Origin: Nemertoderma westbladi
Taxonomy: Eukaryota; Animalia; Xenacoelomorpha
Assembly (NCBI GenBank): GCA_032718475.1
Contig: JAUCBJ010005690.1
Coordinates: forward strand, 1-56,921
Direction: 5' to 3'
DNA: 56,921 nucleotides
Shown: positions 26,221-56,921 of the stretch, one piece after another
Layout: each line of letters starts with the position of its first letter
Numbering within the stretch: the stretch's first letter is position 1
Made by a program: the position numbers and the translations under genes
The notes under the pieces: generated by a model
The model's database searches: none
What the model saw: the letters and a program-made list of their open reading frames with translations, nothing else
What the model was told of the DNA's origin: nothing

Positions 26221-27180
26221 TTATTTATTATTACAAAAAGCTTTAATTTTCTCTGTAATAGAATATATAGCAGTTGTAACGGGAGTTTCATGGTTTCCAG
26301 AGTTACTATCGAACAAATTACTACCAAAGTCGCTGGCCTCCCCCAACCGGGGATCCAAAGGCACCGAGCCGAGAAACGGAACACCCATGGACTCGCACAT
26401 TCCAACAGCGCCCCCCGTAGTCCCCGCGAACACCTCACTAACACCCCGACAGTTCGGGCACACGAACTCCGTCATGTTCTCAACCACTCCGATGATAGGC
26501 AAACCAACTCGTCGACAGAAAGTAACTTCCTTTCGAACATCGAGTAGCGAAACCTCCTGCGGAGTTGTAACGATGACAACGCCGTCGCAGCCCACAGCTC
26601 CGAGGTACTGAACGATGGACAGGTGTTCGTCGCTAGTCCCTGGAGGAGTGTCTACTAGCATGTAGTCTATCTCGCCCCAATCAACATCGCGAAGGAACTG
26701 TTTAATCATCCCGTTCTTACGAGGGCCGCGAAAGATTATGGCGTCGTCTTCCGCTGGGAGGAGAAATGAGATAGACATTGTGTTTAACTTGTCGTCTACG
26801 TAGACTGGGGACCAACCGGAGCCGCTCTGGTGGACAGTCTCGCCCTGCACGCCCAGGATCCGTGGCATAGAGGGACCGCAGATGTCTGTGTCTACCACCG
26901 ACACCTGAGAATCCGACCGACAGAGGGCGTACGCGAGGTTAGCGGTCAGCGTGGACTTACCCACACCGCCTTTACCGCTGAGGATTACGATTTTGTGGGC
27001 GACGCCGCACAATCGGGATCGAATCGTCTCGATGTCCGGGTCCGGGCCCGTTTTTGCGGCGCCGCTCGCGCATATTTTTTGGTTGGGGCAGCCGCTACAC
27101 GGGGTGGCTTTACCAGCGGTGTCGCTAGCGGTTCCCGGACAGTGGGCCGGTGCGTCAGCAGGAACATCTACAACCTCCAT
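26221..27180 (-). CDS. NUBP1: Cytosolic Fe-S cluster assembly factor NUBP1/Nbp35 (Mrp/NBP35 P-loop NTPase), single exon
   Basis: N-terminal CX13CX2CX5C motif (HCPG...[11 protein letters not shown]), deviant Walker [40 protein letters not shown]. Likely ATG at 27180 (MEVVDVP); alternative in-frame ATG at 27207. Confidence 0.96.
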
Positions 27181-29163
27181 ACTGGTATCGGTACGGCGGT
27201 ACACCATACAACGAGGTGGAAAACTCAAACACTGCAACACACTGTCTGATTGTCACTGTGCGCAAATTGCCAATTGGCTTATTGGGATGTCGTTTCAGCC
27301 TTCTCATTGGCAGATAGCGATAGGGTTCATGTTAAATTATTGATCATTATTGAAAAATTAGTGCCTAGACAGCTAGAAGTTAAAATTTTACTGTAAACTG
27401 TGTTCCTAAATGAGTTTATTGTTTGGGTTTGAAAAGCCTACCGTTATAACCTGCTACTTTCCTTTAAAAGGTACCTTAAATGGTGAATACCTGAATACAG
27501 GAATATCGAAATTAAATATTCGTGAAATTAAGTTAATATGATAAAATAGGCTGAATGTGAAACGACACCCCACTTCTGCACTTATTGGTAATATGGGCAC
27601 TGTGCACTGACAACAAACTTGATTTAATTAGTAAGGCATCAAATCAAGAGCTGAAGAGACAGTCAGAAATACAGCCAGAAAGTAGCACAGTAGGTACCGT
27701 ACGGTAGCTGTTTAGGTAGGGAATTTATATTGTCACTAACTCAAGTCATAACATAACAGATAACACTACACATTAATTAAACATTTTTTTTTTACTTAAC
27801 ACAAAAAAATTATACTTATGAAAAAATTACGATAAAATGAATCCATGCACTGTATATTATTATTATATTTAGTATTCGATAATTGTATTGTAATAGACGA
27901 AAGTTTATTGCGGAATAAAAATGAAGTAGTTATTTTGGTCCTTTACTTTAATAATAATTTGAAAACATTTCACCTAAAACTGAATGAATGAATGACTCTA
28001 TATTGTATACTGTAAACTCCAACTTTTTATACAGTATCTATATCTCACTCATGCTAGCTAGCTATCTCATTTTACATTATATTGTATTATAGGGTATCGT
28101 AAAATATTTACGGTTTATTTGCTGATATATTATCTCGACAGACAGTGCGGTATGTACAAAGCATATACTGTTCTGTAGCTGATAGACCACACTATCTGCG
28201 CCGACCACCTGCGGCGAATACCACCACAGTATGTCAATATGAAGGATTTGATATAAAATTTTAAGTTTGTTTTTTTATATTTTTTTTTATTTATTTTACA
28301 GTTGTATAGACCTTGTTTTTTCTTTCTTCATTCGTTAGTAATTTCAATTAAGTCTTAGAGTGTCTGTGGATGGAGATGCCTTAATGGATCTCACCGATAA
28401 GAATGTGAAACTGTTGTTAACAGTGGACAGGATTTTTAGGAATTAAATTACGTATTACATAAAAAAAATTGTAATATCCTTTATTACACCATAAGGATGT
28501 AATATCAGGATTGCTCAGAAATTCGCGGGAAATAAAGCAGTTTTATTCCATGTTATAAATAAGATGCGGTTTGGTGCGGATTGACAACGGAGCGGATTTA
28601 TAAACGGGTCATCCAATATGAGAAAGAATAGATAGGAAATTTAACTATAGAAATAACAGAATGATAACACCACCGTAAAACTAGAATAAATTAAGTTAAC
28701 CAATAATTTTGCATCAATTTTGCATGTTGCTACGAAACTGTTAGTTACTCATTCACTAACCAATGATAGACCTTCCAGTATACGATTTTATAATGATTGC
28801 CTTATTTTTAACAGGGATTTTACCCAGTTTCCCATCATGATACCTACGAAATTAAATAGAAATTACATACTATATCATATAAAATATAATGCAAAGTGAA
28901 ATATAAAATTTCCAAGGAAAGAAACTGAATTTAAAGTGTTACTTGGTTGCCAGGTATTTCAATATTATTGTTTACCTCACTGTCATAGTGACCCAGTGGT
29001 ATTTCCCTCTACAATATATCTTCATGACACTATGAGCTTTATATTTCCAACCATTTTACTAATAATTTATTCGCGCAAGTTGAATAAAATAATTAAATAA
29101 TTTAACTGACTATTATTATATTGTAGTAGTTGTTTCAACGAGTAAGTTAAGTAATAAAACAAT

Positions 29164-31696: not shown

Positions 31697-32050
31697 GTAT
31701 CAATCCCTAATACCAAAAGCTAGCGAGAAATTAACAACAACACCAACACCAACAACAACGGAGTGAATACTAGAGGTCTCGCGGAAATAAAAAGCACATG
31801 ACCATGAATGCCAAGTTCGTCATTTTCGTCATTCAGTCACAAGTAATTGATTTTATGCTTAATTCACGGGGAGACAAATCAACAAGCTCTTCAAAAACTA
31901 AGGACGGAGTTAGTAACAACTATTTGATAAAAGAAAAGTTAGAAACATATTTTAATTTGACAGTTTTATTGGAATTAGTGAATTTTATTTGAGAGGGTGG
32001 GATATAGGTTTCCCTTGGACACTGGGATTATAAAAAGTCATAAGTGGCTA

Positions 32051-34842
32051 GTAGATTGGTAGCAGGTTCTTCTGTGGAGGTGGATTGGTAGCAGGCGGGT
32101 CTGTGGTTGGTTGATTGGTAACATGAAGGTTCTTCTATGGAGGGGAGGTGGATTGGTAGCAGGCGGGTCTGTGGTTGGTTGATTGGTAGTAGGTTCTTCG
32201 TTGGCTGGTGGATTGGTAGCAGGTTCTTCTGTGGAGGTAGATTTGTAGCAGGCGGGTCTGTGGTTGGTTGATTGGTTGCAGGTTCTTCTATGGATGTGGA
32301 TTGGTAGCAGGCGGGTCTGTGGTTGATTGATTGGTAGCAGGTAGGTTCTTCTATGGAGGTGGATAGGTAGCAGGCGGGTCTGTGACTGGTTGATTGGTAG
32401 GTGGTAGCAGGTTCTTCTATGGATGTGGATTGGTAGCAGGAGGGTCTGTGGTTGGTTGATTGGTAGCAGGTTCTTTTGTGGCTGGTGGATTGGTAGTAGG
32501 TTCTTCTGTGGAGGTGGATTGGTAGTAGGCGGGTCTGTGGCTCGTAGATTGGTAGTAGGTTCTTCGTTGGCTGGTGGATTGGTAGCAGGTTCTTCTGTTG
32601 AGGTAGATTTGTAGCAGGCGGGTCTGTGGTTGGTTGATTGGTAGCAGGTTCTTCTATGGAGGGGAGGGGAGGTGGATTGGTAGCAGGCGGGTCTGCGGTT
32701 GGTTGATTGGTAGCAGGTTCTTCTGTGGAGGTGGATTGGTAGTAGGCGGGTCTGTGGCTGGTAGATTGGTAGTATAGGCGGGTCTGTGGCTGGTAGATTG
32801 GTAGTAGGCGGGTCTGTGGCTGGTAGATTGGTAGTAGGTTCTTCGTTGGCTGGTGGATTGGTAGCAGGTTCTTCTGTTGAGGTAGATTTGTAGCAGGCGG
32901 GTCTGTGGTTGGTTGATTGGTAGCAGGTTCTTCTATGGAGGGGAGGGGAGGTGGATTGGTAGCAGGCGGGTCTGCGGTTGGTTGATTGGTAGCAGGTTCT
33001 TCTGTGGAGGTGGATTGGTAGCAGGTTCTTCTGTGGAGTTGGAATGGTAGTAGGCGGGTCTGTGGCTGGTGGATTGGTAGCAGGTTCTTCTCTGGAGGTG
33101 GATTGGTAGCAGGCGGGTCTGCGGTTGGTTGATTGGTAGTAGGTTCTTCGTTGGCTGGTGGATTGGTAGCAGGTTATTCTGTGGAGGTGGATTGGTAGCA
33201 GGCGGGTCTGCTGTTGGTTGATTGGTAGTAGGTTCTTCGTTGGCTCGTTGATTGGTAGCAGGTTCTTGTGTGGAGGTGGATTGGTAGCAGGCGGGTCTGT
33301 GGTTGGTTGATTGGTAGCAGGTTCTTCGTCGGCTGGTGGATTGGTAACAGGTTCTTCTGTGGAGGTGGATTGGTAGCAGGCGAGTCTGCGGTTGGTTGAT
33401 TGGTAGTAGGTTCTTCGTTGGCTGGTGGATTGGTAGCAGGCGGGTCTGTGGTTGGTTGATTGGTAGTAGGTTCTTCGTTGGCTGGTGGATTGGTAGCAGG
33501 CGGGTCTGTGGTTGGTTGATTGGTAGCATGCAGGTTCTTCTATGGAGGTGCTACCAATCCACCAGCCAGTTCTTCGTTGGCTGGTGGATTGGTAACAGGT
33601 TCTTCTGTGGAGGTGGATTGGTAGCAGGCGGTGCTGCGGTTGGTTGATTGGTAGTAGGTTCTTCGTTGGCTGGTGGTTTGGTAGCAGGTTCTTCTATGGA
33701 GGTGGATTGGTAGCAGGCGGGTCTGTGGTTGGTTGATTGGTAGCAGGTTCTTGTGTGGAGGTGGATTGATAGCAGGCGGGTCTGTGGTTGGTTAATTGGT
33801 AGCAGGTTCTTCGTTGGCTGGTGGTTTGGTAGCAGGTTCTTCTATGGAGGTGGATTGGTAGCAGGCGGGTCTGTGGTTGGTTGATTGGTAGCAGGTTCTT
33901 GTGTGGAGGTGGATTGATAGCAGGCGGGTCTGTGGTTGGTTAATTGGTAGCAGGTTCTTCGTTGGCTGGTGGATTGGTAACAGGTTCTTCTGTGGAGGTG
34001 GATTGGTAGCAGGCGGGTCTGTGGCTGGTAGATTGGTTGCAGGTTCTTTTGTGGCTGGTGGATTGGTAGCAGGCGGGTCTGAGGTTTGTTGTTTGGTAGC
34101 TGGTTCTTCTATGGTGGTGGATTGGTAGCAGGCGGGTCTGAGGTTTGTTGTTTGGTAGCTGGTTCTTCTATGGTGGTGGATTGGTAACAGGCGGGTCTGT
34201 GGCTGGTAGATTGTTTGCAGGTTCTTCTGTGGCTGGTAGATTGGTTGCAGGTTCTTTTGTGGCTGGTGGATTGGTAGCAGGCGGATCTGTGGTTGGTTGA
34301 TTGGTAGTAGGTTCTTCGTTGGCTGATGGATTGGAAGCAGGTTCTACTGTGGGGGTAGATTTGTAGCAGGCGGGTCTGTGGTTGGTTGATTGGTAGCAGG
34401 TTCTTCTATGGAGGTGGATTGGTAGCAAGCGGGTCTGTGGTTGGTAGATTGGTTGCAGGTTCTTTTGTGGCTGGTGGATTGGTAGCAGGCGGGTCTGTGG
34501 TTGGTTGATTGGTAGTAGGTTCTTCGTTGGCTGATGGATTGGTAGTAGGTTCCTCTATGGAGGTGGATTGGTAGCAGGCGGGTCTGTGGTTGGTAGATTG
34601 GTTGCAGGTTCTTTTGTGGCTGGTGGATTGGTAGCAGGCGGGTCTGTGGCTGGTGGGTTGGTAGCAGGTTCTTCTATGGAGGTGGATTAGAGCAGGCGGG
34701 CTGTGGCTGGTAGATTGGTTGCGGGTTCTTTTGTGGCTGGTGGATTGGTCGCAGGCGGGTCTGTGGTTGGTTGATTGGTAGCAGGTTCTTCTATGGAGGG
34801 GAGGGGAGGTGGATTGGTAGCATGCTGGTCTGTGGTTGGTTT
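32051..34842. repeat. Complex 29-30-bp G/T-rich minisatellite (~2.8 kb) with alternating monomer types
   Basis: Monomers GATTGGTAGCAGGTTCTTCTGTGGAGGTG, GATTGGTAGCAGGCGGGTCTGTGGTTGGTT and GATTGGTAGTAGGTTCTTCGTTGGCTGGTG. Confidence 0.97.
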
Positions 34843-34930
34843 ATCCACAATCAAAACAGTGATACTTGATATATTTATGGGCGTAGTTGACATGGGCGTT
34901 TAGACTGCCCTGCTGTCTGAATTATTTGTT

Positions 34931-36157
34931 TCAATAACCGCACATATGTTTGATTAGTTTATGGATATAGTCGACATGTTTTTTTAGATCACTTTTGGTA
35001 CCAAATGATTTTCCACAATCAAAACAGCTGTACTTGATATCTTTATGGGCGTAGTTGACATGGGCGTTTAGACTGCCCTGCTGTCTGAATTCTTTGTTAC
35101 AATAACCGCACTTATGTTTGATTAGTTTATGGATAGAGTCGACATGTTTTTTTAGATCACTTTTGGTACCAAATGATTTTCCACAATCAAAACAGCTGTA
35201 CTTGATATCTTTATGTGTGTAGTTGACATGGGCGTTTAGACTGCCTTGCCGGCTGAATTCTTTGTTACAATAACCGCACTTATGTTTGATATCTTTATGG
35301 GCGCAGTTGACATGGGCGTTTAGATGGTCTTGCCGGCTAAATTCTTTGTTACAATAACCGCACTTATGTTTAATTAGTTTATGGATAGAGTCGACATGTA
35401 TCTTTAGATGGCCTCGCTGGCTGAATTCTTTGTTACAATAAACGCACTTATGTTTTATTAGTTTATGGATAGAGTCGACATGTTTCTTTACATAACTCTT
35501 CGTTGTAAACAGTTTCTCACAATAATCGCATTTATACTTATTCTTGACGTCTTTATGAAAGGATTCTATATGTCTCTCTAAATTTTCTCTGCCATTAAAT
35601 AATTCATTGCAATGCGAACAGCAACTGGTAGGCCTATCTGGAGAAAATTGGAACTCCCCAACAGCTTTACTAGAACTACAGGGATCTGTTGTTGCAAAAC
35701 CGATTGCCGGTTTAGTAGAGCTGCAAAGATCAACGTTGTCACGAGAGGTACAGGTACCAGCAGTATTACATTGTTTTCGAACAGTTCGAGTTTCGGCAAA
35801 TGGATCAATAACTATACAACCTTCAGATTTTACACTAATAAATTGCAGCCCACAAGCTGAATGTTGAATATGAATATTTGCATCTTCAGTTTCAATAGGC
35901 CTACCATACGAACATTCTGGGCTGTCATTTTCCTGTTTTTCGACAACAAAATAATCTCCAGAAATATCTTCGTCATCTTGTACAGGGACATCATCTACTC
36001 CACCAAACAAATTGTTATGATTTTCGATAGATGATCCGTAAACGCAGTTCTCCTGTTTAACTTCAACAGGATTGGGGGCACAGTCTGGTGGTTCTTTCTT
36101 TATAATTATCCCGGCACTGGAGGATTTTTTCTTCAAAACATTAATTTGTTGATTCAT
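34931..36157 (-). CDS. C2H2 zinc-finger protein, 8 intact CX2C...HX4H fingers (29-aa/87-bp period), C-terminally truncated
   Basis: Repeated KCGYCNKEF....L..HV...H units; acidic N-terminus with IKKEP/VKQE motifs. First ATG at 36157 (36163 is TTG). The stop replaces the second Cys of finger 9. Confidence 0.9.
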   Translation of the reverse strand: MNQQINVLKKKSSSAGIIIKKEPPDCAPNPVEVKQENCVYGSSIENHNNLFGGVDDVPVQDDEDISGDYFVVEKQENDSPECSYGRPIETEDANIHIQHSACGLQFISVKSEGCIVIDPFAETRTVRKQCNTAGTCTSRDNVDLCSSTKPAIGFATTDPCSSSKAVGEFQFSPDRPTSCCSHCNELFNGRENLERHIESFHKDVKNKYKCDYCEKLFTTKSYVKKHVDSIHKLIKHKCVYCNKEFSQRGHLKIHVDSIHKLIKHKCGYCNKEFSRQDHLNAHVNCAHKDIKHKCGYCNKEFSRQGSLNAHVNYTHKDIKYSCFDCGKSFGTKSDLKKHVDSIHKLIKHKCGYCNKEFRQQGSLNAHVNYAHKDIKYSCFDCGKSFGTKSDLKKHVDYIHKLIKHMCGY

Positions 36158-36165
36158 TATCAAAT

Positions 36166-36225
36166 CTTAATACCGGTAATTATATAGGCCTATCAATAAT
36201 TATAATTATACAGGTGATTACTTAC
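36166..36225 (-). other. Putative 60-bp 5'UTR intron of the zinc-finger gene
   Basis: Minus strand G|GTAAGT ... AT-rich ... TTAAG|ATTTGATAATG, ending 8 nt before the ATG. Inferred from splice consensus only. Confidence 0.4.
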
Positions 36226-41504: not shown

Positions 41505-41509
41505 GCCAC

Positions 41510-42169
41510 TGTGACGGGATCGGAGATCCCAACCGGGTTAGAAATGTACGCGTCACCGTTCTGCTGGGGATTGTGCTACTAGCTTTGGCCGAGGCCGTTT
41601 GGGAAAAACAGTGAAAGTTTCTGTTGTCTCTCGATATTAATTAATATGGACGATAATAGCACGCCAGTAGATAATAAGCAGAAAATATAGATTAATTGTT
41701 ACCGGTATGGTGGTGGCGGTCATTAACTATGACCGGTCTGCACTGACTGAACTGAATAATACAACTGACTGGTAAACCAGTAATGTAAGATAATATATGA
41801 TTAACACATTGAATATTGGTTTACCTCCTACTCTACTTTGGCCCTCTACCCAATGGATGCTTTCCTGTTCCCTATCACGTGCTTCCCTCCCCACTATTGG
41901 CTAATATACTACTTGTCACTTTGGCACTCCCTGGGAGTGTTTCCCCTCCGCTGCTAGCCTCTACTAGCTGCCTTCCCTCCGAGGTGGTTTGACCTCTCAC
42001 CTTTCTCTGTGGCTTTGGGGCTTGTGTCGCCCCCCCACCCCCCCCCCCCCCCCCAATGTTGGTTATGATACGAGATTAATATTGGTAATCTCGTATCCCC
42101 AACATATTGCTAAAATGCCACTAGTCCCATTTTCTGGTGGGTAATGAAGTGGAATTGAATCCGCATACA
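41510..42169 (-). repeat. 3' LTR (660 bp)
   Basis: TGTGACGGGATCGG...GAATCCGCATACA, a direct repeat of 53827-54423 with an extra 55 bp (41929-41983). Confidence 0.96.
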
Positions 42170-42180
42170 CTCCCCCCCCC
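42170..42180 (-). other. Polypurine tract
   Basis: Minus-strand G-run plus AG immediately before the 3' LTR. Confidence 0.85.
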
Positions 42181-42647
42181 ATGCTATCTTCCCGGTGAGA
42201 AGATAGCATCAACTTTAAGTGCGCTTCAATTCCGCTGGAACCCAAACTACTATCGGGTGTGGGGTGGAGTTATTTTCTCTGTACACGTCAACACCTCCTC
42301 TCCATACTTACCTCATACTCCTATACTCAACCCATGCTTGTTTCACTCCACTCACCCCCGACGAGCCTCACCCTCCCCTTTTGTGCCATCGCACTCAAGA
42401 AGTGTGATTCGTCTAGTGTCCCGTCCTCCTGTCATAGTGAATTGGTCCCCAGTCCCAGTAGCTAGTTGGAAAAAGGTTATATATGACTATAGTACTTACT
42501 TTGATTATATTCATTCTAATTATATTATAATTATATTGATTATTACATACGTACATACTAATTGCACTTAATTATTTTGCACTTAGGAGTTCGTATTATT
42601 TCCACATGTGGTACCTTCCAGGCACGCCCACTCTCCCCCTCTGAGTC

Positions 42648-45146
42648 CTAGTTCGCTCCTCCCGTCTTCGGGAACCATCTTAGGTCTTTCCCTCTAGCAT
42701 CCTCCTGTCTGGGCCGCTTCCTTCCCTCTGGTTTGTCCTCTCTGAGACTCCTCATTCTCGCCGTTACCACCTTGCTAATTCCTGTGGTCGATTCTTCGGG
42801 TGCTGGTGTTATTAACTCCCGGTAACGCTTTGCAGGTGGCCCTTCCGAATGCCCCTCCTGCTTCCCCCTGGTAGCGTCCCACAAGATCATTTTCATGGTT
42901 TGCGGCACGTGTTCCACCTGAAAGTCCCTAAACTCTCCTCTGTTTTCTGGCGTCCATCTATCCAAATACCTCTGCGTGTTGATGACTCCTCCATACGACG
43001 CCGCTGTAGCTACCTCTTGGTATGTAAATGGCAGTCTCCTCTTGATAATCTCCAGATGGGCTTCCTGATTGATGTTGAAGAAACCCCACCGGAACTCCTG
43101 GGCCTTCATCCTCTGTTGCGTCATAATGCTGATGTCGGCCCACTCCTCAAAGATCTTAAACTTCTCCTCGTCGTCCATCCAGTCGCACTGGCACCCATAG
43201 TGCCCTCGGGAGTTACACTTAGAGCAGCGGTTGTGCAGCCTCGGACATGCTCCCATCCCATGGCTCGACTCATGGCAGTAGAGACAACTCGTCCCCTTCT
43301 GAAATCGATACAAACAGCTCTTTTCCTGGTGAGTCAGCCTCCCGCAGTAATCACAGCCGTGTATTAACGCATCCCGCCCCAAGTCGTCTTTTGCCCCGAG
43401 CGGTCTCCTAGGTCTGTGGAGCCGTTGGTAGGCAAATAACATCTCTTTCCATATCCACGTTCTCCTCCCGTCTTGGCATCGTCTCTCCAAACACTACCCG
43501 TGGTGCCATTCCCGGTTGCTCACCCAACCTGATGATGCTCCCCGCAAAGTCCATCGCCGGCTCCTCGTGCACCCAGGTCTGCTTGCCGGGCTTATCCCAG
43601 AAGGCCCTCGCCCCGCTGGCCGTCACCACTCTCCCGCCCACCCTGTCCGTATCTAAGTGGCCGAACTCATCTTCATCCTCTTCCCTCGCTGGGAGTGGAT
43701 CCAGACCCGGTAGACCCACTATGCCACTTTCTGGCTTGGCTTCTACCCGTAACTTCCCATCCTTCCTGTTCCCTCGGTCTCTTTCTTACGGAATCGCCCT
43801 CAGAGCCCACTGGCATGGGCATCGCTTGCAATCCCAATGTCGACTGTTTCGGCGATTCTTCCGTCCATCCTAGCTCCTCTCCCAGAAACTCGCCCGAGCT
43901 CCCTGATCTCCACCTCAGCTCGTCCAAGTTCTGGGCCTCGAACCCGTAATCCTCTCCCCTAACCTCCGCATCTCTCTCATCTGCCTCCCTCCTTTCTCGC
44001 CTGGCGACTTCCTCCATTCGCTTCTCCTCAAGTCTATCCGCTTCCAGCTTATCCCATCCCTTGTATGGTGTATCCACCTCCCTGTCTACTAGGTGCTGGC
44101 TGTTGTAGTATACCGACTCGCCCTTCAGCCCTGGGTGGTCTACCAGACCTTTGAAGGAAACCTTAAAGGCTCTTCTGTAGTTTAGCGGTGATCCTGATAG
44201 CAGAAACGCCATCGGCTCTCTTCCAATAACCACGGCCATGAATAGGTTTAGTAAACCTATCATTATCCAATCCTCCTGACATGTCTCTTCTGATATATCT
44301 TTATCATTCCTCTCCGGAACTGATACACCTCCTGTTTCCTTGGCCTCGCTCCCCACTTCAGCGAGTTCGCCAGCTCCGCTAATTACTCCTCCCGGAACTT
44401 ACCCCAGTCCATCGGCTTGTGGCAGACGAGCCCCATGAGTTGACCCATCACCACTGCTCTGCAATGTCCTGTGTTCTCTACCAATCCCAACCCGTCTGGC
44501 CCTGTCATGGCCATATAGACCGCTTGCATGTCCAGGAGGTTGGCGGTCTCCGGTCCGACGATCCTCTCCGCATCGTTGCGGATCGCTGATCCCACCTTCA
44601 CCATTGTCTTCTCTCTTACTAGGTCTTGCACTGCCCTTGGCAACCGGTTTAACTTCGGCCTGCTCTTCTTGCCGTACATTCCTAGATCGAATAGGAATAT
44701 GTCTCCATTTGGCGCAGACAAATGCATAGTATGGTTCTAGCCGATCCTGCCGACCCTCTTCTTGAACCCTCTTCGTCCTCCACAGTCCCTTTGTCGTCTA
44801 GGACCATGTATCCTCCCCTGTTCACAGACTCTACAAACCTCCTCCAGTCCTTTCTCGGTGGTTCTATCGGATACTTCGGTATCCCGAACTTTGCTTCGTC
44901 TCCTTTCACTATGTAGCAAAAATGCTTGAGGATTGCATTGTCCAGCGACGGTGTCCCATAGGTCCCGACCAGTCGTCTCTCGTGCATCTCCCTTAAGTGG
45001 TCCTGCAGTGCTCGCGCTTTGTGACCCTTCGCTAGCGGCTCGTAGTATCCCCTTGTCTTCTCCTCCGGATGCCTTTGCGTGAAGTCCACTAGTATCTCCT
45101 TTCCACTCCTCTCCGTCTTTCTCTTCTTAACAAGTCTCTCCGCCAT
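42648..45146 (-). pseudogene. Extra ORF of the LTR element: DEDDy-like 3'-5' exonuclease domain plus three CCHC zinc knuckles (frameshifted)
   Basis: HLSAPNGDIFLFDL...LPRAVQDLVREKTMVKVGSAIRNDAE...NLLDMQ resembles the WRN/RNase D exonuclease core; QKR.CQEDW resembles ExoIII. Knuckles: CDYCGRLTHQEKSC, CLYCHESSHGMGAC, CSKCNSRGHYGCQC. Confidence 0.65.
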
Positions 45147-45674
45147 TACGAACTTCCTCGCTCGCTCACCTGCTTGCTGGTGCCTTGCCAAGGCTCAAGT
45201 AGATGAGTGACGTTTAGTAGGATGGTCTGTACTGGTTAAGTAATGGCCTATCTCTCTCAAATGCTAAATTTGTAGTATATTTTTACCTATACGCCCCGCA
45301 AAGTGCCAATTTCCTAAATTTCCTAAATCTGTCAGTTACTTTTATTATGTTCTAGAATCTTTTACTTACTGTTACGATAATTTGTCAGATTTACTTCTAA
45401 TACTATTTTATTTTATTTTTTTGTTAGTATGCTATTATCGCTTATGGTGGGTTATTTTATTTAGATAACCCATATGGTTTGTATACAGGGTAGACTAGCT
45501 ATTCTCTACTGTGCTAGTCCGTCCAGGTAGCCTCCTGGCCCTGTATCAAACATCCTAACTTACTCTATGGGCCATGCAGTACAGTAGTCTGTCTCATGCG
45601 GCCTACATGGTCTATCCTGCTGTACCCACGTGCCCCCCTCTCTATTTCGTGGCGCTCTCTATGCCCACAACCTC

Positions 45675-46335
45675 TACGGTACTACATACCCTGCTACTGC
45701 TACTCTTATGATACATCTATATACCATATTCTTTACTCTCTTACTACTAACTCTTACCAACTCTACTAACTCTATCGGTACTACATACCCTGCTACTACT
45801 CTCATGGTATGATTATATGCCACACTCCCTATACTTCTAACTCCTACCAGCGGTACTATGTACCCTGCCACTACTCTCGTGGTATGCCAAGATACCACAC
45901 TCCCTATACTTTTAACTTCTACCAGCGGTACTATGTACCCTGCCACTACTCTCGTGGTACGTCAATATACCACACTCCCTATACTTCTAACTTCTACCAG
46001 CGGTACTATGTACCCTGCCACTACTCTCGTGGTATGTCAATATACCACACTCCCTATACTTCTAACTTCTACCAGCGGTACTATGTACCCTGCCACTACT
46101 CTCGTGGTATGTCAATATACCACACTCCCTATACTTCTAACTACGGTACTATATACCCTACTACTCTCGTGGTACGTCAATGTACCACACTCCCTAACTT
46201 CTGCCTACGGTACTATGTACCCTACTACTCTTGTGGTACGTCAATGTACCGAACCCCCTAACTTCTGCCTACGGTACTATGTACCCTACTACTCTCGTGG
46301 TACGTCAATGTACCACACTCCCTAACGTCTGCCTA
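45675..46335. repeat. Tandem repeat (75-bp and 64-68-bp units) between pol and the extra ORF
   Basis: CGGTACTAT(G/A)TACCCT starts at 45851, 45926, 46001, 46076, 46144, 46208 and 46272. Confidence 0.93.
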
Positions 46336-46494
46336 CTTACTTAGTGTTACGCACTATCTACTACTATTACTTTGTAACTTTCTACTACCTCACTTCTTAA
46401 TTTTATTATTTTATTATTTTTTTATATTTTGTGTGGGAAGGGCGTCTCTCCCTCATTCCCAGCCCCCTCAGTCCAACATTTGGACGACTGAACT

Positions 46495-49400
46495 CTAAGG
46501 TGCCCCTTCTAATAGGCAGCACTTTCCTACAGCCCTCCTGTAGGTCTTCCTGTCCTTTGCTCCTATCTTGCCTCCTATTCTCACTTCCACCGACCGGACT
46601 CTTCCGTCCTCGTCGGGGTAAGTATCTACCACTCCCGCTAGCCTCCACTGGTTATTTATAATTGTGTCGTCAGTAACGATTACCAAGTCACTTTTCTTCA
46701 GCTCCCTAGTGGTGTTTCTCCACTTACTCCTCCTGTGTAATGTGGGAAGATATTCCTCTACCCATCTCCTCCAATACTTGACGCTTATTGCCTTGGCGAC
46801 TTTCCAACTTTGGCGGGAATGTATGTCGTCTGGGTCTACGCCCCGCATGTCGATGGTCGCCGGCCTCTCCATCAGAAAGTGTCCCGGTGTTAGCACGTCC
46901 AGTGATTCTGGGTCGTCATTCTCCGGATATAGCGGTCTGCTATTAATGATTCCCTCGCACTTGGCAAGCACCGTTCTTAGTATGTCCTCTGTGACCATGT
47001 GGGTGTTCATCAACTTCGTCATTAAACGCTTAGAACTTCCCACAAGTCTCTCTACACATCCTAAGGTATGTGGTGTGTACGGTGTCCTCCTTTCCCACTT
47101 CACTTGCCATCTCCTCATAGCCACCCTGACATCTTCTCCCTCCAGGATGTTGAAGGCCTTGGCCAACTCGTTCTCTGCTCCAACGAAGTTGGTCCCGTTA
47201 TCTGAATAAATCACCGCGATTGTTCCCCCTTTGCGGTCTCTAAATCTCTCTAAGGCATTAATAAATGCCGATGCCGTAGCGTCCTGCGCGAGTTCTATTC
47301 CTACCGCCCTCGTATTGTTGCATACGAAGATAATGCCGTGGCGTTTCTCCGTGTGTCGCATCACCTTAATCTTAATCGGCCCGAACATGTCTATGCCGCA
47401 GTGTGTGAATGGCGGGTCGTGTTGTCTCACTATGTTGGCCGGTAATGGCGCCATCTCCTGTATGGCCCTCTCCTTTCTCACCCTTCGGCAGGTCTGGCAC
47501 TGCCCCACTACCGCCTTCACCTTCTTCCTAAGTTGCGTGATCCAGAATGTTCTTCTTATCTCTGTGAGGGTCTGATTCGTGCCTCCATGTAGTATCAACT
47601 TATGCGAGTCCCAAATGATTTGGTGGACTATCGGTGATTTGTTAGGAATGATTATGGGTTTCGGTGGGATAACTAGGCTGTTGTTGTTCACCACTCTGGA
47701 ATTCATCACCAGAATCCCATCATCATTCAACTGTGGGGACAGCATGTTGAGCTCGCTGTCTCGACGAAGGTGTTGTTGCTTGCTAACTCTATCCACTTCG
47801 TCGGCGTAGTTCTTTCTCTGCTCGTACCGTATTACGGCTTTAGCCACTCCTTCCAGATCGATGTTTGGTTTCCTTTTGGCATCCTTGCCAACTCCCCTAA
47901 GGAAATCCCCGTAGACCTTCCAATACACTACCAACTTCTTGGTCTTATACCAGCTGGAGCTGTAACTGAGCAACCTATCTGTCGGGTTGTCGCATGGTTC
48001 TTCTAATTTCGGTGGCACCTCCTTGATCTCCCTCACTATCTGGCTGTATATCTCTTCCCCTTCTGAATCTTCCCCCTCTTCTTCTGGTACTACTTCCTCT
48101 GAGCCCTGGTCCACCTTCCTCATTGGTGGCCAGGCTGATCTATCGCTCAGGAAGTGTGGCCCGTGCTGCCACAACACTTCCTTCTTCGAGAAAGTGTGGC
48201 ATGCCACGCCCCTCGATAACAAATCTGCTGGGTTGTCGTCGGTAGGGCAGTAATGCCACCTATCTAGGTCGGTCATCGCCCTTATCTCGTCTACCCTATT
48301 CGCGACGAATATAGGGTATCTCGTCTTCTCATTATGCAGCCACCCTAGCACTACCATGGAGTCCGTCCAGTAGTGTGTCTCCACTATGTTGGGTATAGTG
48401 TCCATCAAGTAGGCTGTGGCCCTTACTCCTAACCTCGCAGCTGTCAACTCGAGTTTCGGGACTGACCCTGATTCTGGTGGCATCGACTTCGCTTTACTAA
48501 ATGCAAGTCTGGGCTTATGAACCCCCTTTCGCTGTACCAGATAAAGTGCCGCTCCATACGCTTCTAAAGATGCATCAGAAAACATATGTAGATCCAGGTC
48601 CGTCATGTCCCCGTCCGGGAAATACACGCGTGGCATGCTGTACATCCCCATCTGTTCTAGACTTCCCGTCCACTTACTCCACTGTTTGCTTATTTCTTCC
48701 GGGACCTCCGTATCCCACTCGTCCTTCAACTTGTATACTTTCTTTAGTATCTGCTTCCCTGTGACTAACAATGGGGATGCTAGGCCTAAGGGATCGTATA
48801 TCCTTGCTATGTACAATACATAGCCTCGCTTTGTGTGGATCTCTGCGCCCTCCTGGCTTAGTTGATACTCCAACTCATCCGTCTCCCGGTTCCACACAAT
48901 CCCCAGCGCCTTCTGCTGAGACTCCACTCTCTTGTTCGCCATGTCCTGTCCCTTCGCTGTTGTGGGGTTGCCCATGGTCGACTCTGGCCGCCTGTCTTCT
49001 ATGGCTTTCATGAACTTCTCTGAGCTGGACTGGAACTTAGTCAGGTTGAATCCGGATCCCTTTACGATATCGCGAACCTCGCACCCTATATCCAGTATTT
49101 CTTCAACCGTGTTTCCAGATCCCATCCCATCGTCTATCTAGAAACCGCATCGAATCATGTCGATCGACTTGGCACTATACTCTCCCTCTTTCCCCTCTAC
49201 CGTATCTCTCACAGCCAGAGTCGTCATAAATGAGGATGACTTGGCCCCCATGTTTTGCACCACCATCTTGTACATCGGTATCGCAGACGGTTCCTCGTCA
49301 CCGTTATACCACAGGAAGCGCTGGCTGTCACTGTCCTCTTCCGTCACACAGACTTGGTTGAACATGCCTTCGATGTCGCACGTGAAGGTGTGCCTCCCAT

Positions 49401-50540
49401 TCCTAAATCTCAACAAGACCTCTATCCCCAAGTTGTAGATGTTGGGGCCCTCCAGCAGATAGTCGTTAATAGGCTCTTGCCATTCGTTTTGGCCGATGCA
49501 TCAACCACCATCCGCAGTTTACCCTTCTTTGGGTCTAAAGCCACATGAAGTGGCAGGTAGTAGGTCCAGTCCGTGTTCGGTTCGTCGACCGGTAACTCCA
49601 CGGCCCATCCCTTTTCCATGTATTTCTTTATTGTCTTATGGATCTACTCATCCTACTCGGGGCTCTGTCTGAGTGTTTGCTTCAGTTTGCAAAGCCTCTT
49701 GAGTACCATCCCTTTATTGTCAGGCAACGGTAGTTTTGGTTGGTTGTTTCCACACCATGCCTATGGTGTACCATCCCTCGTCGCACTTCATCGACTCCTT
49801 CATGCTTTCTATTGCTTGTTTATCCTCTACCGAGGTTCCGACCCCGGCCTCCTTTAATCCTTCGAAGTCCTCTCTTAACAGCCTCTTAAGCTGCTCTTTT
49901 GATCCTTCATCCTCCATCTCCCTCATGGTCCCCGCGAACATGCACCCCGATGTCTCCGACACCCTGAATGGAATCTTGGTTTTGATTGGGCCGCTAAGTG
50001 TTCATCCGAACGGTGTGAGAACTGCCATTGGATCACGCTGCCTGTCCTCTCCGAAGATTGTTCGTACTCTCTCGTGGGCCATCGGACAGTCCATCCCCAC
50101 TATGATGGATACCTTCCGGACGTCCACTTCCGGTATCGAGAAATCGATTTCATCCAGGAATCTGTATTACTCGACCTCGTTGTTAGTTGGTCGCCTGGCA
50201 TTTATGTTGATCGATTCTATTACCTGAATGGGGTCGATGGTCGCCCCATAGTCACATCCCAGTGCTATTGCTGATATCTCGCACCTTCCCGTCCTCATCT
50301 CCAGGACCTCATCCAGGATCTCCAGTTACTGCCATCCTGCTCGGCCTCGTCTGTAACTTTATCTCCTCGGCCACCCAATTCTGCACCAATGTGAAGGCTG
50401 CTCCATGGTCGACCAGCATCAACGTGGTAATTGATCGACCGCTTTCTCCCATTACCCTCACCGGTACCGCCCCGAGTAGTACCATTCCCCTTCTCTTCGC
50501 ACCTACGGTGCTTGTCGCCATCGTTTTGCCTTTGCCTTGA
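46495..50540 (-). pseudogene. BEL/Pao pol (protease, RT, RNase H, integrase); 46495-49125 is still open (876 aa)
   Basis: PR LVDHGAAFT; RT YLPLH, KLRMVVDAS, CDIEGMFNQV, F*IDD (TAG at 49138-49140 replaces the Y of YxDD); RH LHMFSDASLEAYGA, PKLEL, WTDSMVVL; IN H..H..CQTC, GIDMFGP, SDNGTNFVGA, ERLVG. Confidence 0.95.
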
Positions 50541-53500
50541 CCGAATATAATTGGTGTCTCTTTACATTGCTCAGCCTTGTGTCTGCCTGCCACACATCGA
50601 TGACAGATTCCACTTTCGTTCGCGTATTCTAGCTGATCTTGTTTGGGTAATGCTTGCCAGTACCTGCAGTTCATGGTCTGATGATTGATGAAGTGCGTTC
50701 GAAAGTAATTGGCATTTGTTTCTCGGATTATAGCCTCCCCTATATAGCACGCTCCGTATCGCACGTACATTCATACTTAGCTCTCTACTGTTCTTATTAT
50801 TTGGGTTTGGCCTACTGGGCGTGTTGGGGCTGTATTTATTTGTGTTATTATTTTGTCCCTGTCCATGCCATGGTATGGCCCTACCCCCGGCTATCTCTGA
50901 ACTAGCAGTCCTCTGCGTCGTCGCGTATGGTAGCGATTGTCTGAGCTTTGGTAATGCATTTGCCGCATTATGTTCTGGTTTCAGCCTGCTATATTCGGTC
51001 TTCCGGATCTAATCCCGTTGTTCGCGCTACCCAATCGCCTACACTATCTCTTCCAGCATGGCCTATAGTATGTGCAGTAAGGCCTACAGTATGTCCTGCA
51101 GTCTGCCTATGTCCCTCCAGACCGAAGTGTAATCTTCTCGAATATTCCAAGAAGTCCTCCCCGCGACCACCGTACTCTCGATCGGCAACTATATCCCGTC
51201 GGGAAGTTTCTCTGCAATCCCCTCTTCTGTCCTCGTCCTCGTACCGGTACATCCTGTACCCTTCTCCCGGCGTATGGTATATCTTGCCAGGCTGCATCTC
51301 TCCGGGGCGACGGCAATCTCCCGGAGTTCGACCCCACTGACTCTCTAACTCCATCTCTGCCACCGACGGTTCGCTGTCCAACCTCGCTCTCCGGTTGCTC
51401 GTAGCAACGCTTCTTCTATTCTCTTCACTTCTTCTCTCCTCAGTGTAGCACTCCCGCTAATAAGATCTCTCTTCGACCTCCCGTTTAAACTCTACTGTTC
51501 TTCTTCCATCTTCCGACTGGGCTCAACGTCACATCGCTCGCCCGCTCACAGCACCAACCTCTCTCTCTCTCTAGCCGGTTGGACGCTCCTGGGGATACTC
51601 GCAATCCCCCTACTATTCTCCGTCGTCGGGTGCCGCGGTTAACCTAACTCTCCCCGCGCATTATCCGCCGATGCTTGTGGGGCATTCTCTGCCGCCCCCC
51701 CCCCCCCCTCTCACCACTAATCTCCCGTGGTGGGGCACCCGTAGCCCCCCCCCCCCCATTCACCACCTCTTACTTCGCTACCTCCTACTTCGCTTCTACG
51801 CCCCTCTCTAGTCGATGCATTATCTCTACTGTGGCTGGGTCTACTCACCCCCGCCTCTCCCTGTGCGACTGTGTGGCCTTGCAGGCTCCCATCGGGTTGA
51901 CTCACCCCCGCTACTCCCTGCCTAACTACATGGCCTTGCAGGCTCCCATTGGGGCGACTCACCGCCGCTACTCCCTGCATAACTACATGGCCTTGCAGGC
52001 TTCCGTCGGGTTCACTCACCCCGCTACTCCCTGCACAACTATGTGGCCTTGCAGGCTCTCGCTGTCCGGACTACCTGTGTCCCCTACATTCGTTTTAATA
52101 GCACCGTTATCAATAATATTGTTATCTAAATTATTTAAATTATTTAAATTATTTTGTTCGGATTTGTGGTTATTATTTGGATTACTTTGTACATTTAAAT
52201 TAGAATTATTATTTGGATTATTTTGTGTGTCTAAATTAGTGTTATTATTTGGATTACCGGTATTTTATGCGTTTAAATTAATATTATTTGGATTATTTTG
52301 TATGTTTAAATTAGTATTATTATTATTTTGCACATTTGAATCAAAATAACTATTACTGGGTAAAACATTATTTCCTGCAATAAAGGTTTGATTAGGGTTG
52401 TCTACTACAGTACTATTAATATTAATTCTTTCTAACGTATTATTATTACCCCCCCCCCCCCCTCCCCCCCCCGTCCATACGGTTACAACAGTCCTGGGTC
52501 TGTCGTCCAGTACCTGTAAGTAGGGTATTAACAAATGTTTCCATTACTTCGGGCTCCCCATAAATACTACCCGAACCGGCCTCACTCTCAGATAATCCCA
52601 ACTGCGCCAGTTCTAATCGGCGCTTTTGCTTTGTCTGGTATTGCATAAGCCCGCTTAACCGGGTATGCATATCATCCCGCATACGCTTTCCCGTTCTCTC
52701 TCTCTCTCTGTCCTCTCGCAAACTTTGGTCGGCCAACTCTGCCTCTCTCGCAATCCTCTCAAGCCTCCTCGCCTCATGCTCCTTGCGCTCGCTCGCCTCT
52801 CTCGCCTCTCGCTCTTTACATTCCCTTAATTCCCTCTCCTCACCCTCTCTAAAGTTCCTCGCGACCCTCTCAGCCATCTCTTTACTCTCTCTCACTAACT
52901 CTCTCTCTTTCTCTAATAATGCGGTTCCCTCATCCAATTGCCTCTCCAACTCTTTCTGGTCCAACGCCATCATATCTAGTTGACACGCCAGATCTATCTC
53001 TAACACCCTAACACCTAACACCTCTAACACCAGGATGTAGCGGACTTTTCACTCACAACGGACTCCCGTCGCCTCTCCGTCCTACTAACTTTCCCCCGCT
53101 TTCTGGGGTTCTCGCTAACCGACGACACCGAATCCTCGGGGTTAATCTCGGGTTCGCCGTCGTGCGGGTCCGCCCAACCCACTAGCTTAATTCCCCTAGC
53201 ATCCACTAAGTAAGGCTACACTACATCTGGATCACCACAATTCAAACAGTTCCGTGGCGACCCCCCTCGCTCTCTCACCTGCCAGTTCTCCCTGTCCAAA
53301 TGGACTAAATAGTGGAACTGTTTATTCGACTCACCTAGCCTCTGATATAGTTTAGGCTGGTCTACCTTTCTCCCTTCTTTGGCCTCCTTAAGTAACTTCT
53401 TGGTGACGTTGTAGGCCCGTCGTAGCCGATCACTCGTCCCGACGTCCTCTTCGCCAACTCCTCCTCCTCTCCTTGTCCGGCATCGTACCAGCGGCCCCAC

Positions 53501-53773
53501 TGTCGCCGTTCTGGTGGGCCATCCATCGCCCTCGGCCTGTGGCTGGCTGGCGACTTCGGTACTCCGACCGCCGTCATGCGTCGACTCGTCTCCCTCTCGT
53601 GGTTGACGGCCGCCCTCCTCTTGGACAGCCGGATCGTCTCTCGTTGGCGAATCCAGCGTGGGAGGCCGATACCGTCTTGTCGCAGCCTCACGGATTGTTT
53701 GGTTGGTGTCGTCCGGGGTCCGCGGCGGCGTCCTCTCTCCCTCTGATAATCGGGGCGTTCCTTCTTCCGCCAT
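50541..53773 (-). pseudogene. gag-like region of the BEL/Pao element, multiply frameshifted
   Basis: ATG at 53773 just inside the 5' LTR; E/R-rich coiled coil, low-complexity tracts and a Zn knuckle (CHRCVAGRHKAEQC) upstream of the protease. Confidence 0.75.
51843..52060. repeat. 57-bp (19-codon) tandem repeat within gag, ~4 copies
   Basis: ACTCACC starts at 51843, 51900, 51957 and 52014; encodes (GSLQGHVV.QGVAGVS.P.)n on the minus strand. Confidence 0.9.
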
Positions 53774-53826
53774 CTTTCTATTTTCTCTTCGCAGTCACAG
53801 TTTATTGGCAGGTGGCAGTTAATGAC

Positions 53827-54423
53827 TGTAACGGGATCGGAGATCCCGACTGGGTTAGAAATGTACGCATCACCATTCTGCTGGGGATCGTGCTACTAGC
53901 TTTGGCCGAGGCCGTTTGGGAAAAACAGTGAAAGTTTCTGTTGTCCCCTCGATATTAATTAATATGGACAATAATAGCACGCCAGTAGATAATAAGCAGA
54001 AAATATAGATTAATTATTACCGGTATGGCGGTGGCGGTCATTACCTATGACCAGTCTGCACTGACTGAACTGAATAATACAACTGACCAGTAAACCAGTA
54101 ATGTAACATAATATATGATTTACACATTGAATATTGGTTTACCTCCTACTCTACTTTGGCCCTCTACCCAATGGATGCTTTCCCGTTCCCTATCATGTGC
54201 TTCCCTCTCCACTATTGGCTAATATACTACTTGTCACTTTGGGACTGTGGTTTGACCTCTCACCTTTCTCTGTGGCTTTGGGGCTTGTGTCCCCCCCCCC
54301 CCCCCCCCAATGTTGGTTATGATACGAGATTAATATTGGTAATCTCGTATCCCCAACATATTGCTAAAATGCCTCTAGTCCCATTTTCTGGTGGGTAATG
54401 AAGTGGAATTGAATCCGCTTACA
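53827..54423 (-). repeat. 5' LTR (597 bp)
   Basis: TGTAACGGGATCGG...GAATCCGCTTACA followed by the TSD GCCAC. Confidence 0.96.
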
Positions 54424-54845: not shown

Positions 54846-54915
54846 AAAATGTTATAGTACATTATGATAATGCTCTCCATAGCGAAAAATATCAACCGCC
54901 CCTATTGGGGCTCGA

Positions 54916-54959
54916 ACCCGGTACCTAGGTTTCAAACTTCCGGTTATCATCAGCTGAGT
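54916..54959 (-). ncRNA. Type I hammerhead ribozyme, copy 1 (weakened stem I)
   Basis: ACTCAG CTGATGA TAACCGGAAGTTT GAA ACCTAGGT A CCGGGT; stem I has an A-C mismatch and a U-G pair. Confidence 0.7.
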
Positions 54960-55262
54960 GTGTGTCCTAAGACCACTGAGCTACCAGGGCGGTAGAAGAT
55001 TTATTCGCTATGGAGTGGGGTATCATTTTTAGGCCTTTTTACGTCACTCATAGTAAAGTACAACGTTATTCCCGAGCTCTGCCAGAAATGGCAACCATGC
55101 CTCAAAGAATAACTATTATACAGTGTTGTAGAAACCACTGTAACCCCGTATGCCGGCCATGCGTGTTAATTAATTATAAATGAATTGTTGTGGGGAGGGT
55201 GACGGCGAATTAAATAAATGTTATAGTACATTATGATAATGCTCTCCATAGTGAAAAATATC

Positions 55263-55362
55263 AACCGCCCCTATTGGGGCTCGAACTCGGTACCTAGGTT
55301 TCAAACTTCCGGTTATCATCAGCCGAGTGTGTGTCCTAAGACCACTGAGCTACCAGGGCGGT
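55263..55362 (-). promoter_or_regulatory. Pol III type-2 internal promoter cassette in each 369-bp unit (copy 2 shown)
   Basis: A box TAGCTCAGTGG (55352-55342), B box GTTCGAGCC (55286-55278), closing stem ACCGCCCT/GGGGCGGT, T5 run a few nt downstream. Confidence 0.7.
55285..55328 (-). ncRNA. Type I hammerhead ribozyme, copy 2
   Basis: ACTCGG-CTGATGA-T AAC CGGAA GTT T-GAA-ACCTAGGT-A^CCGAGT: perfect 6-bp stem I, intact core, palindromic stem III, GUA cleavage site between 55291 and 55290. Confidence 0.85.
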
Positions 55363-55653
55363 AGAAGATTTATTCACTTTGGAGTGGGCTATCATATATA
55401 GGCCTTTTACAGTCACTCATAGGAAAGTACAACGTTATTCCCGTGCTCTGCCAGAAATGGCAACCATGCCTCAAAGAATAACTATTATACAGTGTTGTAG
55501 AAACCACTGTAACCCCGTATGCCGGCCATGCGTGTTAATTAATTATAAATGAATTGTTGTGGGGAGGGTGACGGCGAATTAAATAAATGTTATAGTACAT
55601 TATGATAATGCTCTCCATAGTGAAAAATATCAACCGCCCCTATTGGGGCTCGA

Positions 55654-55697
55654 ACTCGGTACCTAGGTTTCAAACTTCCGGTTATCATCAGCCGAGT
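55654..55697 (-). ncRNA. Type I hammerhead ribozyme, copy 3
   Basis: Identical to copy 2. Confidence 0.85.
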
Positions 55698-56022
55698 GTG
55701 TGTCCTAAGACCACTGAGCTACCAGGGCGGTAGAAGATTTATTCACTTTGGAGTGGGCTATCATATATAGGCCTTTTACAGTCACTCATAGGAAAGTACA
55801 ACGTTATTCCCGTGCTCTGCCAGAAATGGCAACCATGCCTCAAAGAATAACTATTATACAGTGTTGTAGAAACCACTGCAACCCCGTATGCCGGCCATGC
55901 GTGTTAATTAATTATAAATGAATTGTTGTGGGGAGGGTGACGGCGAATTAAATAAATGTTATAGTACATTATGATAATGCTCTCCATAGTGAAAAATATC
56001 AACCGCCCCTATTGGGGCTCGA

Positions 56023-56066
56023 ACTCGGTACCTAGGTTTCAAACTTCCGGTTATCATCAGCCGAGT
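56023..56066 (-). ncRNA. Type I hammerhead ribozyme, copy 4
   Basis: Identical to copy 2. Confidence 0.85.
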
Positions 56067-56391
56067 GTGTGTCCTAAGACCACTGAGCTACCAGGGCGGT
56101 AGAAGATTTATTCACTTTGGAGTGGGCTATCATATATAGGCCTTTTACAGTCACTCATAGGAAAGTACAACGTTATTCCCGTGCTCTGCCAGAAATGGCA
56201 ACCATGCCTCAAAGAATAACTATTATACAGTGTTGTAGAAACCACTGTAACCCCGTATGCCGGCCATGCGTGTTAATTAATTATAAATGAATTGTTGTGG
56301 GGAGGGTGACGGCGAATTAAATAAATGTTATAGTACATTATGATAATGCTCTCCATAGTGAAAAATATCAACCGCCCCTATTGGGGCTCGA

Positions 56392-56435
56392 ACTCGGTAC
56401 CTAGGTTTCAAACTTCCGGTTATCATCAGCCGAGT
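56392..56435 (-). ncRNA. Type I hammerhead ribozyme, copy 5
   Basis: Identical to copy 2. Confidence 0.85.
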
Positions 56436-56760
56436 GTGTGTCCTAAGACCACTGAGCTACCAGGGCGGTAGAAGATTTATTCACTTTGGAGTGGGCTATC
56501 ATATATAGGCCTTTTACAGTCACTCATAGGAAAGTACAACGTTATTCCCGTGCTCTGCCAGAAATGGCAACCATGCCTCAAAGAATAACTATTATACAGT
56601 GTTGTAGAAACCACTGTAACCCCGTATGCCGGCCATGCGTGTTAAATAATTATAAATGAATTGTTGTGGGGAGGGTGACGGCGAATTAAATAAATGTTAT
56701 AGTACATTATGATAATGCTCTCCATAGTGAAAAATATCAACCGCCCCTATTGGGGCTCGA

Positions 56761-56804
56761 ACTCGGTACCTAGGTTTCAAACTTCCGGTTATCATCAGCC
56801 GAGT
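56761..56804 (-). ncRNA. Type I hammerhead ribozyme, copy 6
   Basis: Identical to copy 2. Confidence 0.85.
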
Positions 56805-56921
56805 GTGTGTCCTAAGACCACTGAGCTACCAGGGCGGTAGAAGATTTATTCACTTTGGAGTGGGCTATCATATATAGGCCTTTTACAGTCACTCATAGGA
56901 AAGTACAACGTTATTCCCGTG

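Follow-up and report, generated by a model that had tools for sequence, protein, structure and literature searches.

A hammerhead sequence at the anticodon-arm position of a tRNA-like cassette in a 369-bp tandem repeat of Nemertoderma westbladi

Small self-cleaving ribozymes occur in several families of animal tandem repeats. Metazoan non-LTR retrozymes, as described in the available texts, consist of tandem units of 150–450 bp with one type I hammerhead each, a GC content below 50% and no ORF (PMC7229834, bioRxiv 10.64898/2026.07.22.740005). Their RNA monomers are reported to be ligated far better by RtcB than by self-ligation, and a dependence on Penelope-like elements has been proposed. For most animal retrozymes, the literature searched, as far as it was accessible, does not name the polymerase, and leaves open how circles escape re-cutting. 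The Schistosoma repeats Sm-alpha and Sj-alpha combine tandem repetition with a tRNA-derived Pol III promoter and a type I hammerhead (PMC6765202, PMC2770079, PMC4918200); their single copies are described as losing the ability to propagate.

The array described here resembles both. It lies in a window (the whole stretch analysed, 56,921 nucleotides of contig JAUCBJ010005690.1), and its unit of 369 bp, with a GC content of 43% and no ORF, carries the hammerhead core in 6 of 6 copies; in unit length and tandem form it fits the non-LTR retrozymes (150–450 bp, at least two consecutive hammerhead units). In every unit, judging from its sequence, the hammerhead is situated at the anticodon-arm place of a tRNA-like cassette.

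The array and its cassette

The analysis covers one array in one window, with near-identical copies and a single array end inside the window. The reference coordinates for the cassette are those of copy 2, and all features are on the minus strand.

54847–56921, minus strand: tandem array holding 5.6 copies of the 369-bp unit and running off the window end.
54894–54993, minus strand: cassette of copy 1, terminal and diverged, with a weakened stem I.
55394–55400, minus strand: TATA-like word, TATATAT in copies 2–6 and TAAAAAT in copy 1.
55370–55395, minus strand: 5' arm of the outer inverted repeat, nearly all upstream of the candidate Pol III start.
55353–55362, minus strand: 5' closing/acceptor strand, with tRNA positions 1–7 at 55359–55353.
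55342–55352, minus strand: A box, with T8 at 55352; predicted pairing between its GCUC and the B-box GAGC would lengthen stem I.
55333–55343, minus strand: altered 3' side of the D arm, with 3/4 D-stem pairs.
55285–55328, minus strand: type I hammerhead, with the predicted cut at 55291|55290 after GUA, equivalent to tRNA positions 48|49.
55292–55299, minus strand: 8-nt palindrome ACCUAGGU across stem III, the predicted inter-unit helix of a double hammerhead.
55278–55286, minus strand: B box, with G53 at 55286.
55264–55278, minus strand: 3' strand of the T stem (unpaired), acceptor 3' strand 66–72 (55273–55267), G73 and trailer.
55254–55258, minus strand: T5, candidate leaky Pol III terminator.
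55233–55258, minus strand: 3' arm of the outer inverted repeat, which includes T5 and extends 21 nt beyond it.
55291–55659, minus strand: predicted 369-nt cut-to-cut monomer, with the B box at its 5' end and the A box near its 3' end.

The A box, B box, ribozyme core, closing stem and T5 are present in all six copies, and TATATAT in five. An initial annotation of this DNA had proposed a tRNA-like Pol III cassette in which a ribozyme replaces the anticodon arm and overlaps the B box. All the motifs that it named are found on the minus strand where it had placed them, including the closing stem (55362–55355 with 55271–55264; 8 pairs, one of them U-G), TATATAT upstream in copies 2–6, and T5 as the only such run of the unit on this strand. 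Apart from T5, no unit has a run of at least four T on the minus strand; one extra T4 spans the left edge of the array (54846–54849).

The motif descriptors were derived from general consensus motifs and written post hoc, after the sequence had been seen. When one unit was dinucleotide-shuffled 30,000 times and both strands were searched with them, loose A and B boxes arose in 94 cases, both boxes plus at least 6/7 acceptor pairs in tRNA register in one, and a hammerhead with its stems in two. Across the whole window, matches to the tRNA-register and hammerhead descriptors are confined to the array. The remaining features are weaker: T5 occurs no more than 20 nt after position 73 in 3% of 20,000 shuffles, and the TATA-like word within its search interval in 2.4%. 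At most one T4 run per unit is found in 26%, which is not significant.

Copies 2–6 differ from one another by 0–1 bases, and terminal copy 1 by 13 (3.5%). All 13 differences lie within unit positions 37–229 (window 54847–55075), with positions 230–369 as in the other copies; this clustering suggests recombination or an insertion junction. To the left of the array, about 420 bp away, ends a BEL/Pao LTR retrotransposon (41508–54423, minus strand) with fragmented frames and internal tandem repeats of 57, 64 and 75 bp; its LTRs (approximately 41508–42169 and 53825–54423) are 95–98% alike. Further left are an intronless NUBP1/Nbp35 frame (26221–27252, minus strand), whose best relatives listed are at most 63% identical and which may be a retrocopy or reflect a divergent host lineage; 30-bp coding-like repeats with an extensin-like match (32044–36166, minus strand), adjoining a C2H2 zinc-finger frame with 84-bp repeats; and a 13-bp satellite (1691–25284) of approximately 1,813 copies with strong strand asymmetry. 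In the 13 of 27 long window frames scanned, no Penelope-like domain was found.

In the single run X1, available as contigs only and tentatively assigned in kind, two records fall on the array, neither of them across the ribozyme, and the NUBP1 gene has no cover. The first record, one low-depth contig, matches window positions 54854–54925 and 56645–56679 as a variant copy with an inverted junction, and its match stops at a distance of 4 bases from the predicted cleavage position. Penelope-like insertions typically include inverted copies.

Probable tRNA descent and hammerhead anatomy

The cassette very probably originated from a tRNA. The case is stronger than the initial annotation had argued, because the acceptor stem is in exact register: if 55352 is taken as T8 and 55286 as G53, there are 6/7 acceptor pairs between positions 1–7 and 66–72, three further pairs lengthen the stem, and the pairing is maximal at shift 0 among the nine shifts tried. 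The ribozyme occupies tRNA positions 26–48, as had been proposed; these are replaced by 42 bases, and the 5' strand of the T stem now serves as the 3' strand of ribozyme stem I. The T stem retains 2/5 pairs (3/5 in copy 1). Among real tRNAs with the cassette's ends (100 distinct sequences from 121 loci), 92 have 7/7 acceptor pairs and 95 a 5/5 T stem. As the anticodon arm and T stem have been lost, the cassette is no longer a tRNA; ARAGORN found no tRNA genes, and the Rfam tRNA and vault models gave no match up to E=10. Of the tRNA- or vault-RNA-like outline envisaged initially, the tRNA register stands, and the likeness to vault RNA does not extend to its Rfam model.

With regard to the source isotype, the top three of the 100 sequences are tRNA-Lys, with 32/41 identities versus 31 for the others, in a set made up of viral-contig tRNAs; the sole match to the strictest tRNA pattern is a tRNA-Lys(CTT). 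A hammerhead may have entered a tRNA gene or the head of a SINE, the promoter and acceptor being kept and the anticodon and T stems lost. Phage tRNA-like genes with enlarged, unassignable anticodon loops were encountered at four loci (L176, L178, L181, L183).

The ribozyme itself is very probably a true hammerhead motif. Its core consists of CTGATGA (55322–55316) and GAAA (55302–55299), and stem I of ACTCGG (55328–55323) and CCGAGT (55290–55285), giving 6 bp. Stem II has 3 bp on a U-U mismatch and the loop CGGAA; stem III has 2 bp and the loop CUAG. The order CUGANGA, GAAA, NUH, with stems I–III present, is that of type I. The overlap with the B box is borne out as well: G53 and U54 occupy positions 1.5 and 1.6 of stem I, and U55 is the unpaired base after stem I, where U agrees with the HH9 consensus. 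Rfam scores the motif against HH9 at 21.3 bits (E=0.0032), under the gathering score of 52, and at the gathering threshold there are no Rfam matches in the window. In copy 1, stem I carries two changes (one mismatch and one wobble), and the hammerhead fold costs 11.7 kcal/mol.

The axolotl ribozyme HHR_Amex2 has the same 2-bp helix III and U-U base of helix II; as described in the available text, cleavage of its monomer reaches 22%, and its dimer is cleaved much more efficiently (PMC7229834).

Predicted transcripts, folding and alternative readings

In our judgement, the chances are about even that the array is a non-LTR retrozyme, probably driven by Pol III, in which leaky termination and cleavage of dimers would yield 369-nt monomers and circles. 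Transcription would mostly end at the first T5, leaving a rod of ~110–118 nt that hides the cut site; a smaller share of transcripts would read through one T5 and, with no further T4 on the way, extend into the next unit. The two weak ribozymes would then join by means of the ACCUAGGU palindrome and cleave as a double hammerhead. The released 369-nt monomer would have its ends held together by stem I, the acceptor stem, an outer stem and pairing between the A and B boxes. By analogy with known retrozymes, RtcB would ligate the monomer, the circle would keep the ribozyme blocked, and a Penelope-like element would reverse-transcribe the circle into tandem copies.

The use of Pol III, considered on its own, is somewhat more probable than not from the motifs. 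TATATAT lies ~30 nt ahead of a candidate start at 55371, and T5 starts 32 nt after the cut site. The initial annotation saw a conflict between T5 and the synthesis of multimers, which would call for read-through or another polymerase. The conflict is a soft one: T5 termination in human cells, as reported in the accessible text of PMC5725217, reaches 95% (U6) and 74% (7SK, H1), a leak of 5–26% at these human-cell values, and a single T5 passage gives two ribozymes, with no other T4 in the unit. With such a leak, a second polymerase would not be needed.

Two features point beyond the short transcript. The outer inverted repeat (55370–55395 with 55233–55258) spans start and terminator and cannot form in the short product; reaching beyond the likely start and T5, it points to an RNA longer than the cassette. 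The 3' end of the array lies ~38–47 nt beyond T5; the array was therefore not copied from T5-terminated RNA. The outer-stem domain has z=-4.4 (copy 2) and -5.7 (copy 1), the domain having been chosen after the repeat was seen. One pair of this stem is altered on both sides between copy 1 and copies 2–6; both are CpG sites, and the double change, which may reflect deamination, is weak evidence.

The same observations bear on an unlikely alternative, in which the tRNA part is a relic of a promoter, its ends persisting only as monomer-clamping stems. The array would then be an ordinary retrozyme whose RNA is made by Pol II or comes from external read-through. The outer stem ignores the limits of a Pol III unit, and newt satellite retrozymes appear to be made by Pol II (PMC6765202, as far as its accessible text goes). 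Mutual pairing of the A and B boxes has a predicted P=0.95, so RNA structure alone could preserve them. Sequence conservation does not decide the matter: the cassette shows 2/100 against 11/129 differences (p=0.043), which becomes p=0.07 if three adjacent differences are counted as two indels, and p=0.53 when the comparison is with the whole unit. The signal of purifying selection on the cassette is not robust, and this test does not separate the rivals. Against a relic, the A box, B box, TATA and T5 are all intact and spaced as for Pol III despite the loss of the T and anticodon stems. The neighbouring LTR element, located downstream in the same orientation, would direct its transcription away from the array.

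Folding was examined by nearest-neighbour prediction, in which tertiary contacts, Mg2+ and kinetics are omitted; in a real transcript, a rod may trap the first unit. For the 109-/118-nt product, the prediction is a rod in which the D-arm remnant pairs across the cut site and stem III (P=0.97). Stem I has P=0.03, and the hammerhead fold costs 5.0 kcal/mol. The initial proposal of a ~105-nt self-cleaving RNA is thus not upheld for the main product. Stem I is equally improbable in 34% of 300 segment shuffles; the blocking helix is therefore not special and the monomer simply weak. The idea that the D arm is a designed switch against the ribozyme was tested as well and is not supported.

These figures also weigh on the reading, slightly less probable still, that a short Pol III RNA of ~110–118 nt is the real product, cutting itself alone or as a trans dimer into pieces of 72–81 nt and 37 nt, for self-destruction or as a source of small RNAs. 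TATA, A box, B box, closing stem and T5 do outline a complete small-RNA gene, and most transcripts should end at T5. Two short RNAs could associate in trans via the palindrome (about -7.6 kcal/mol predicted), and tertiary contacts could offset part of the 5 kcal/mol. On the other side are the low stem I probability of the monomer, the position of the outer stem outside the short RNA and the fact that a 110-nt product cannot template a 369-bp unit.

The read-through RNA behaves differently in these predictions. In a natural two-unit RNA of 487 nt, the palindromes are paired with P=0.95 and the swapped stem I with P=0.76, and a double hammerhead costs 4.8 kcal/mol versus 10.6 kcal/mol for two single ones. 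In the best fold of this dimer, the core is mispaired with loop 2, and the active fold lies 4.8 kcal/mol higher. The result is unchanged over three choices of start and end; in a trimer, units 1 and 3 pair, and in a dimer running from copy 2 to copy 1 no double hammerhead appears. The ends of the released monomer are predicted to be clamped by stem I (P=0.83–0.95) and by A/B-box pairing. Once circular, the RNA is predicted to revert to the blocked fold, which is 5.0 kcal/mol lower in energy than the active fold; this would protect the circle from cutting. Overall, 56% of the circle is paired, with z=-1.2 for the sense and -2.7 for the antisense strand; the sense strand folds no better than shuffles.

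It is improbable that the array is a silent satellite, namely a dead chimaera of retrozyme and SINE spread by recent unequal crossing-over, with motifs intact through youth, or at most DNA that binds TFIIIC. Copies 2–6 are near-identical and the terminal copy has diverged, its CpG-type transitions suggest methylation, and both of its cassette changes weaken stem I; however, its core bases, both boxes and three nested stems are intact at 3.5% difference, and known retrozymes are described as highly transcribed. Misidentification of the motif can be set aside as highly improbable: a long-variable-arm tRNA whose anticodon and variable loops mimic a hammerhead core does exist (L009, positions 1169–1257, and L090; GAT anticodon, Ile according to ARAGORN), the A/B-paired panhandle resembles vault RNA, and TA flanks the outer inverted repeat in copies 2–6 as in a MITE with 26-bp terminal repeats, but no anticodon stem surrounds CUGAUGA, which is four bases off the anticodon register and accompanied by stems I–III, the vault model gave no match, and the repeat unit is 369 bp rather than the 163-bp inverted-repeat span. 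Boxes and ribozyme are not mentioned in the accessible text of PMC2872659.

In the preferred reading of a Pol III-driven retrozyme, the cut falls between the A and B boxes; a copy of the linear monomer would therefore have them in reversed order, and the promoter would be restored only from circular or multimeric templates. A more specific and more doubtful proposal within this reading is a natural circle-making cassette: a tRNA gene invaded at its anticodon arm by a hammerhead, with bases doing double duty in B box and ribozyme stem, in which a leaky T5 and a dimer-dependent ribozyme would restrict cutting to read-through RNA. If true, the splitting of the promoter in the RNA copy would explain the life of the element as tandem arrays.

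Comparison with known systems

Pattern scans for relatives gave 7 plus at least 120 viral loci, at least 119 metagenome loci and 108 loci in prokaryote genomes. Among the matches listed, 506 loci were screened (152 of them tRNA-pattern matches); four pass the hammerhead descriptor, none of these with an A box. The scan says little about animals, because the collections are mostly prokaryotic. At locus L061 (1208–1252, minus strand), a type I hammerhead (Rfam 45.3 bits) has a B-box-like word right after stem I; it lies at a contig end, where the upstream sequence stops 15 nt before the hammerhead. The nested layout, with a ribozyme between the boxes, was not found in the published literature searched, as far as this was accessible. 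Supplementary file 11 of PMC4918200, in the form seen, has A- and B-box-like runs of letters in coral retrozymes, with a garbled layout.

Several known systems share single elements with the 369-bp unit. Theta ribozymes are also joined to tRNAs, but are HDV-like, occur in phage and lie beside intact tRNAs (PMC10879173, accessible text). In the Tornado system, too, ribozymes generate the 5'-OH and cyclic-phosphate ends, and a stem presents these to RtcB, although, as described, it is synthetic and uses twister ribozymes (PMC12118343). In tRNA-derived SINEs and the TRIMp3 elements Helenus and Cassandra, a non-coding repeat carries internal A and B boxes from a small-RNA gene, and transcription of Cassandra is reported to run from one repeat into the next (PMC10886601). 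The 369-bp unit differs from these in carrying a ribozyme; no LINE-like tail, A tail, PBS or LTR structure was seen in it.

The metazoan non-LTR retrozymes differ in another way: no promoter is described for them in the accessible texts, whereas the present array has tRNA-like promoter motifs, recognised from sequence alone. In PMC4918200, as far as accessible, the schistosome tRNA is the only recognised motif named. Circles, target duplication and a Penelope partner belong, for their part, to the described retrozymes, the 369-bp array being known as DNA sequence. Its unit would permit base-level tests both of the polymerase and of circle re-cutting, as changes to the B box, T5 and palindrome predict distinct RNA patterns.

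The nearest parallel is Sm-alpha. There, according to the texts available, the ribozyme comes after a complete tRNA-Gln. In the 369-bp unit it sits between the A and B boxes, and some of its bases also belong to the B box; the anticodon and T stems are gone, and T5 follows 32 nt after the cut. If the reading is correct, this would be a natural tRNA promoter and ribozyme sharing nucleotides, and a compact Pol III design for circular RNA. In Sm-alpha the same parts stand side by side, and here they are nested.
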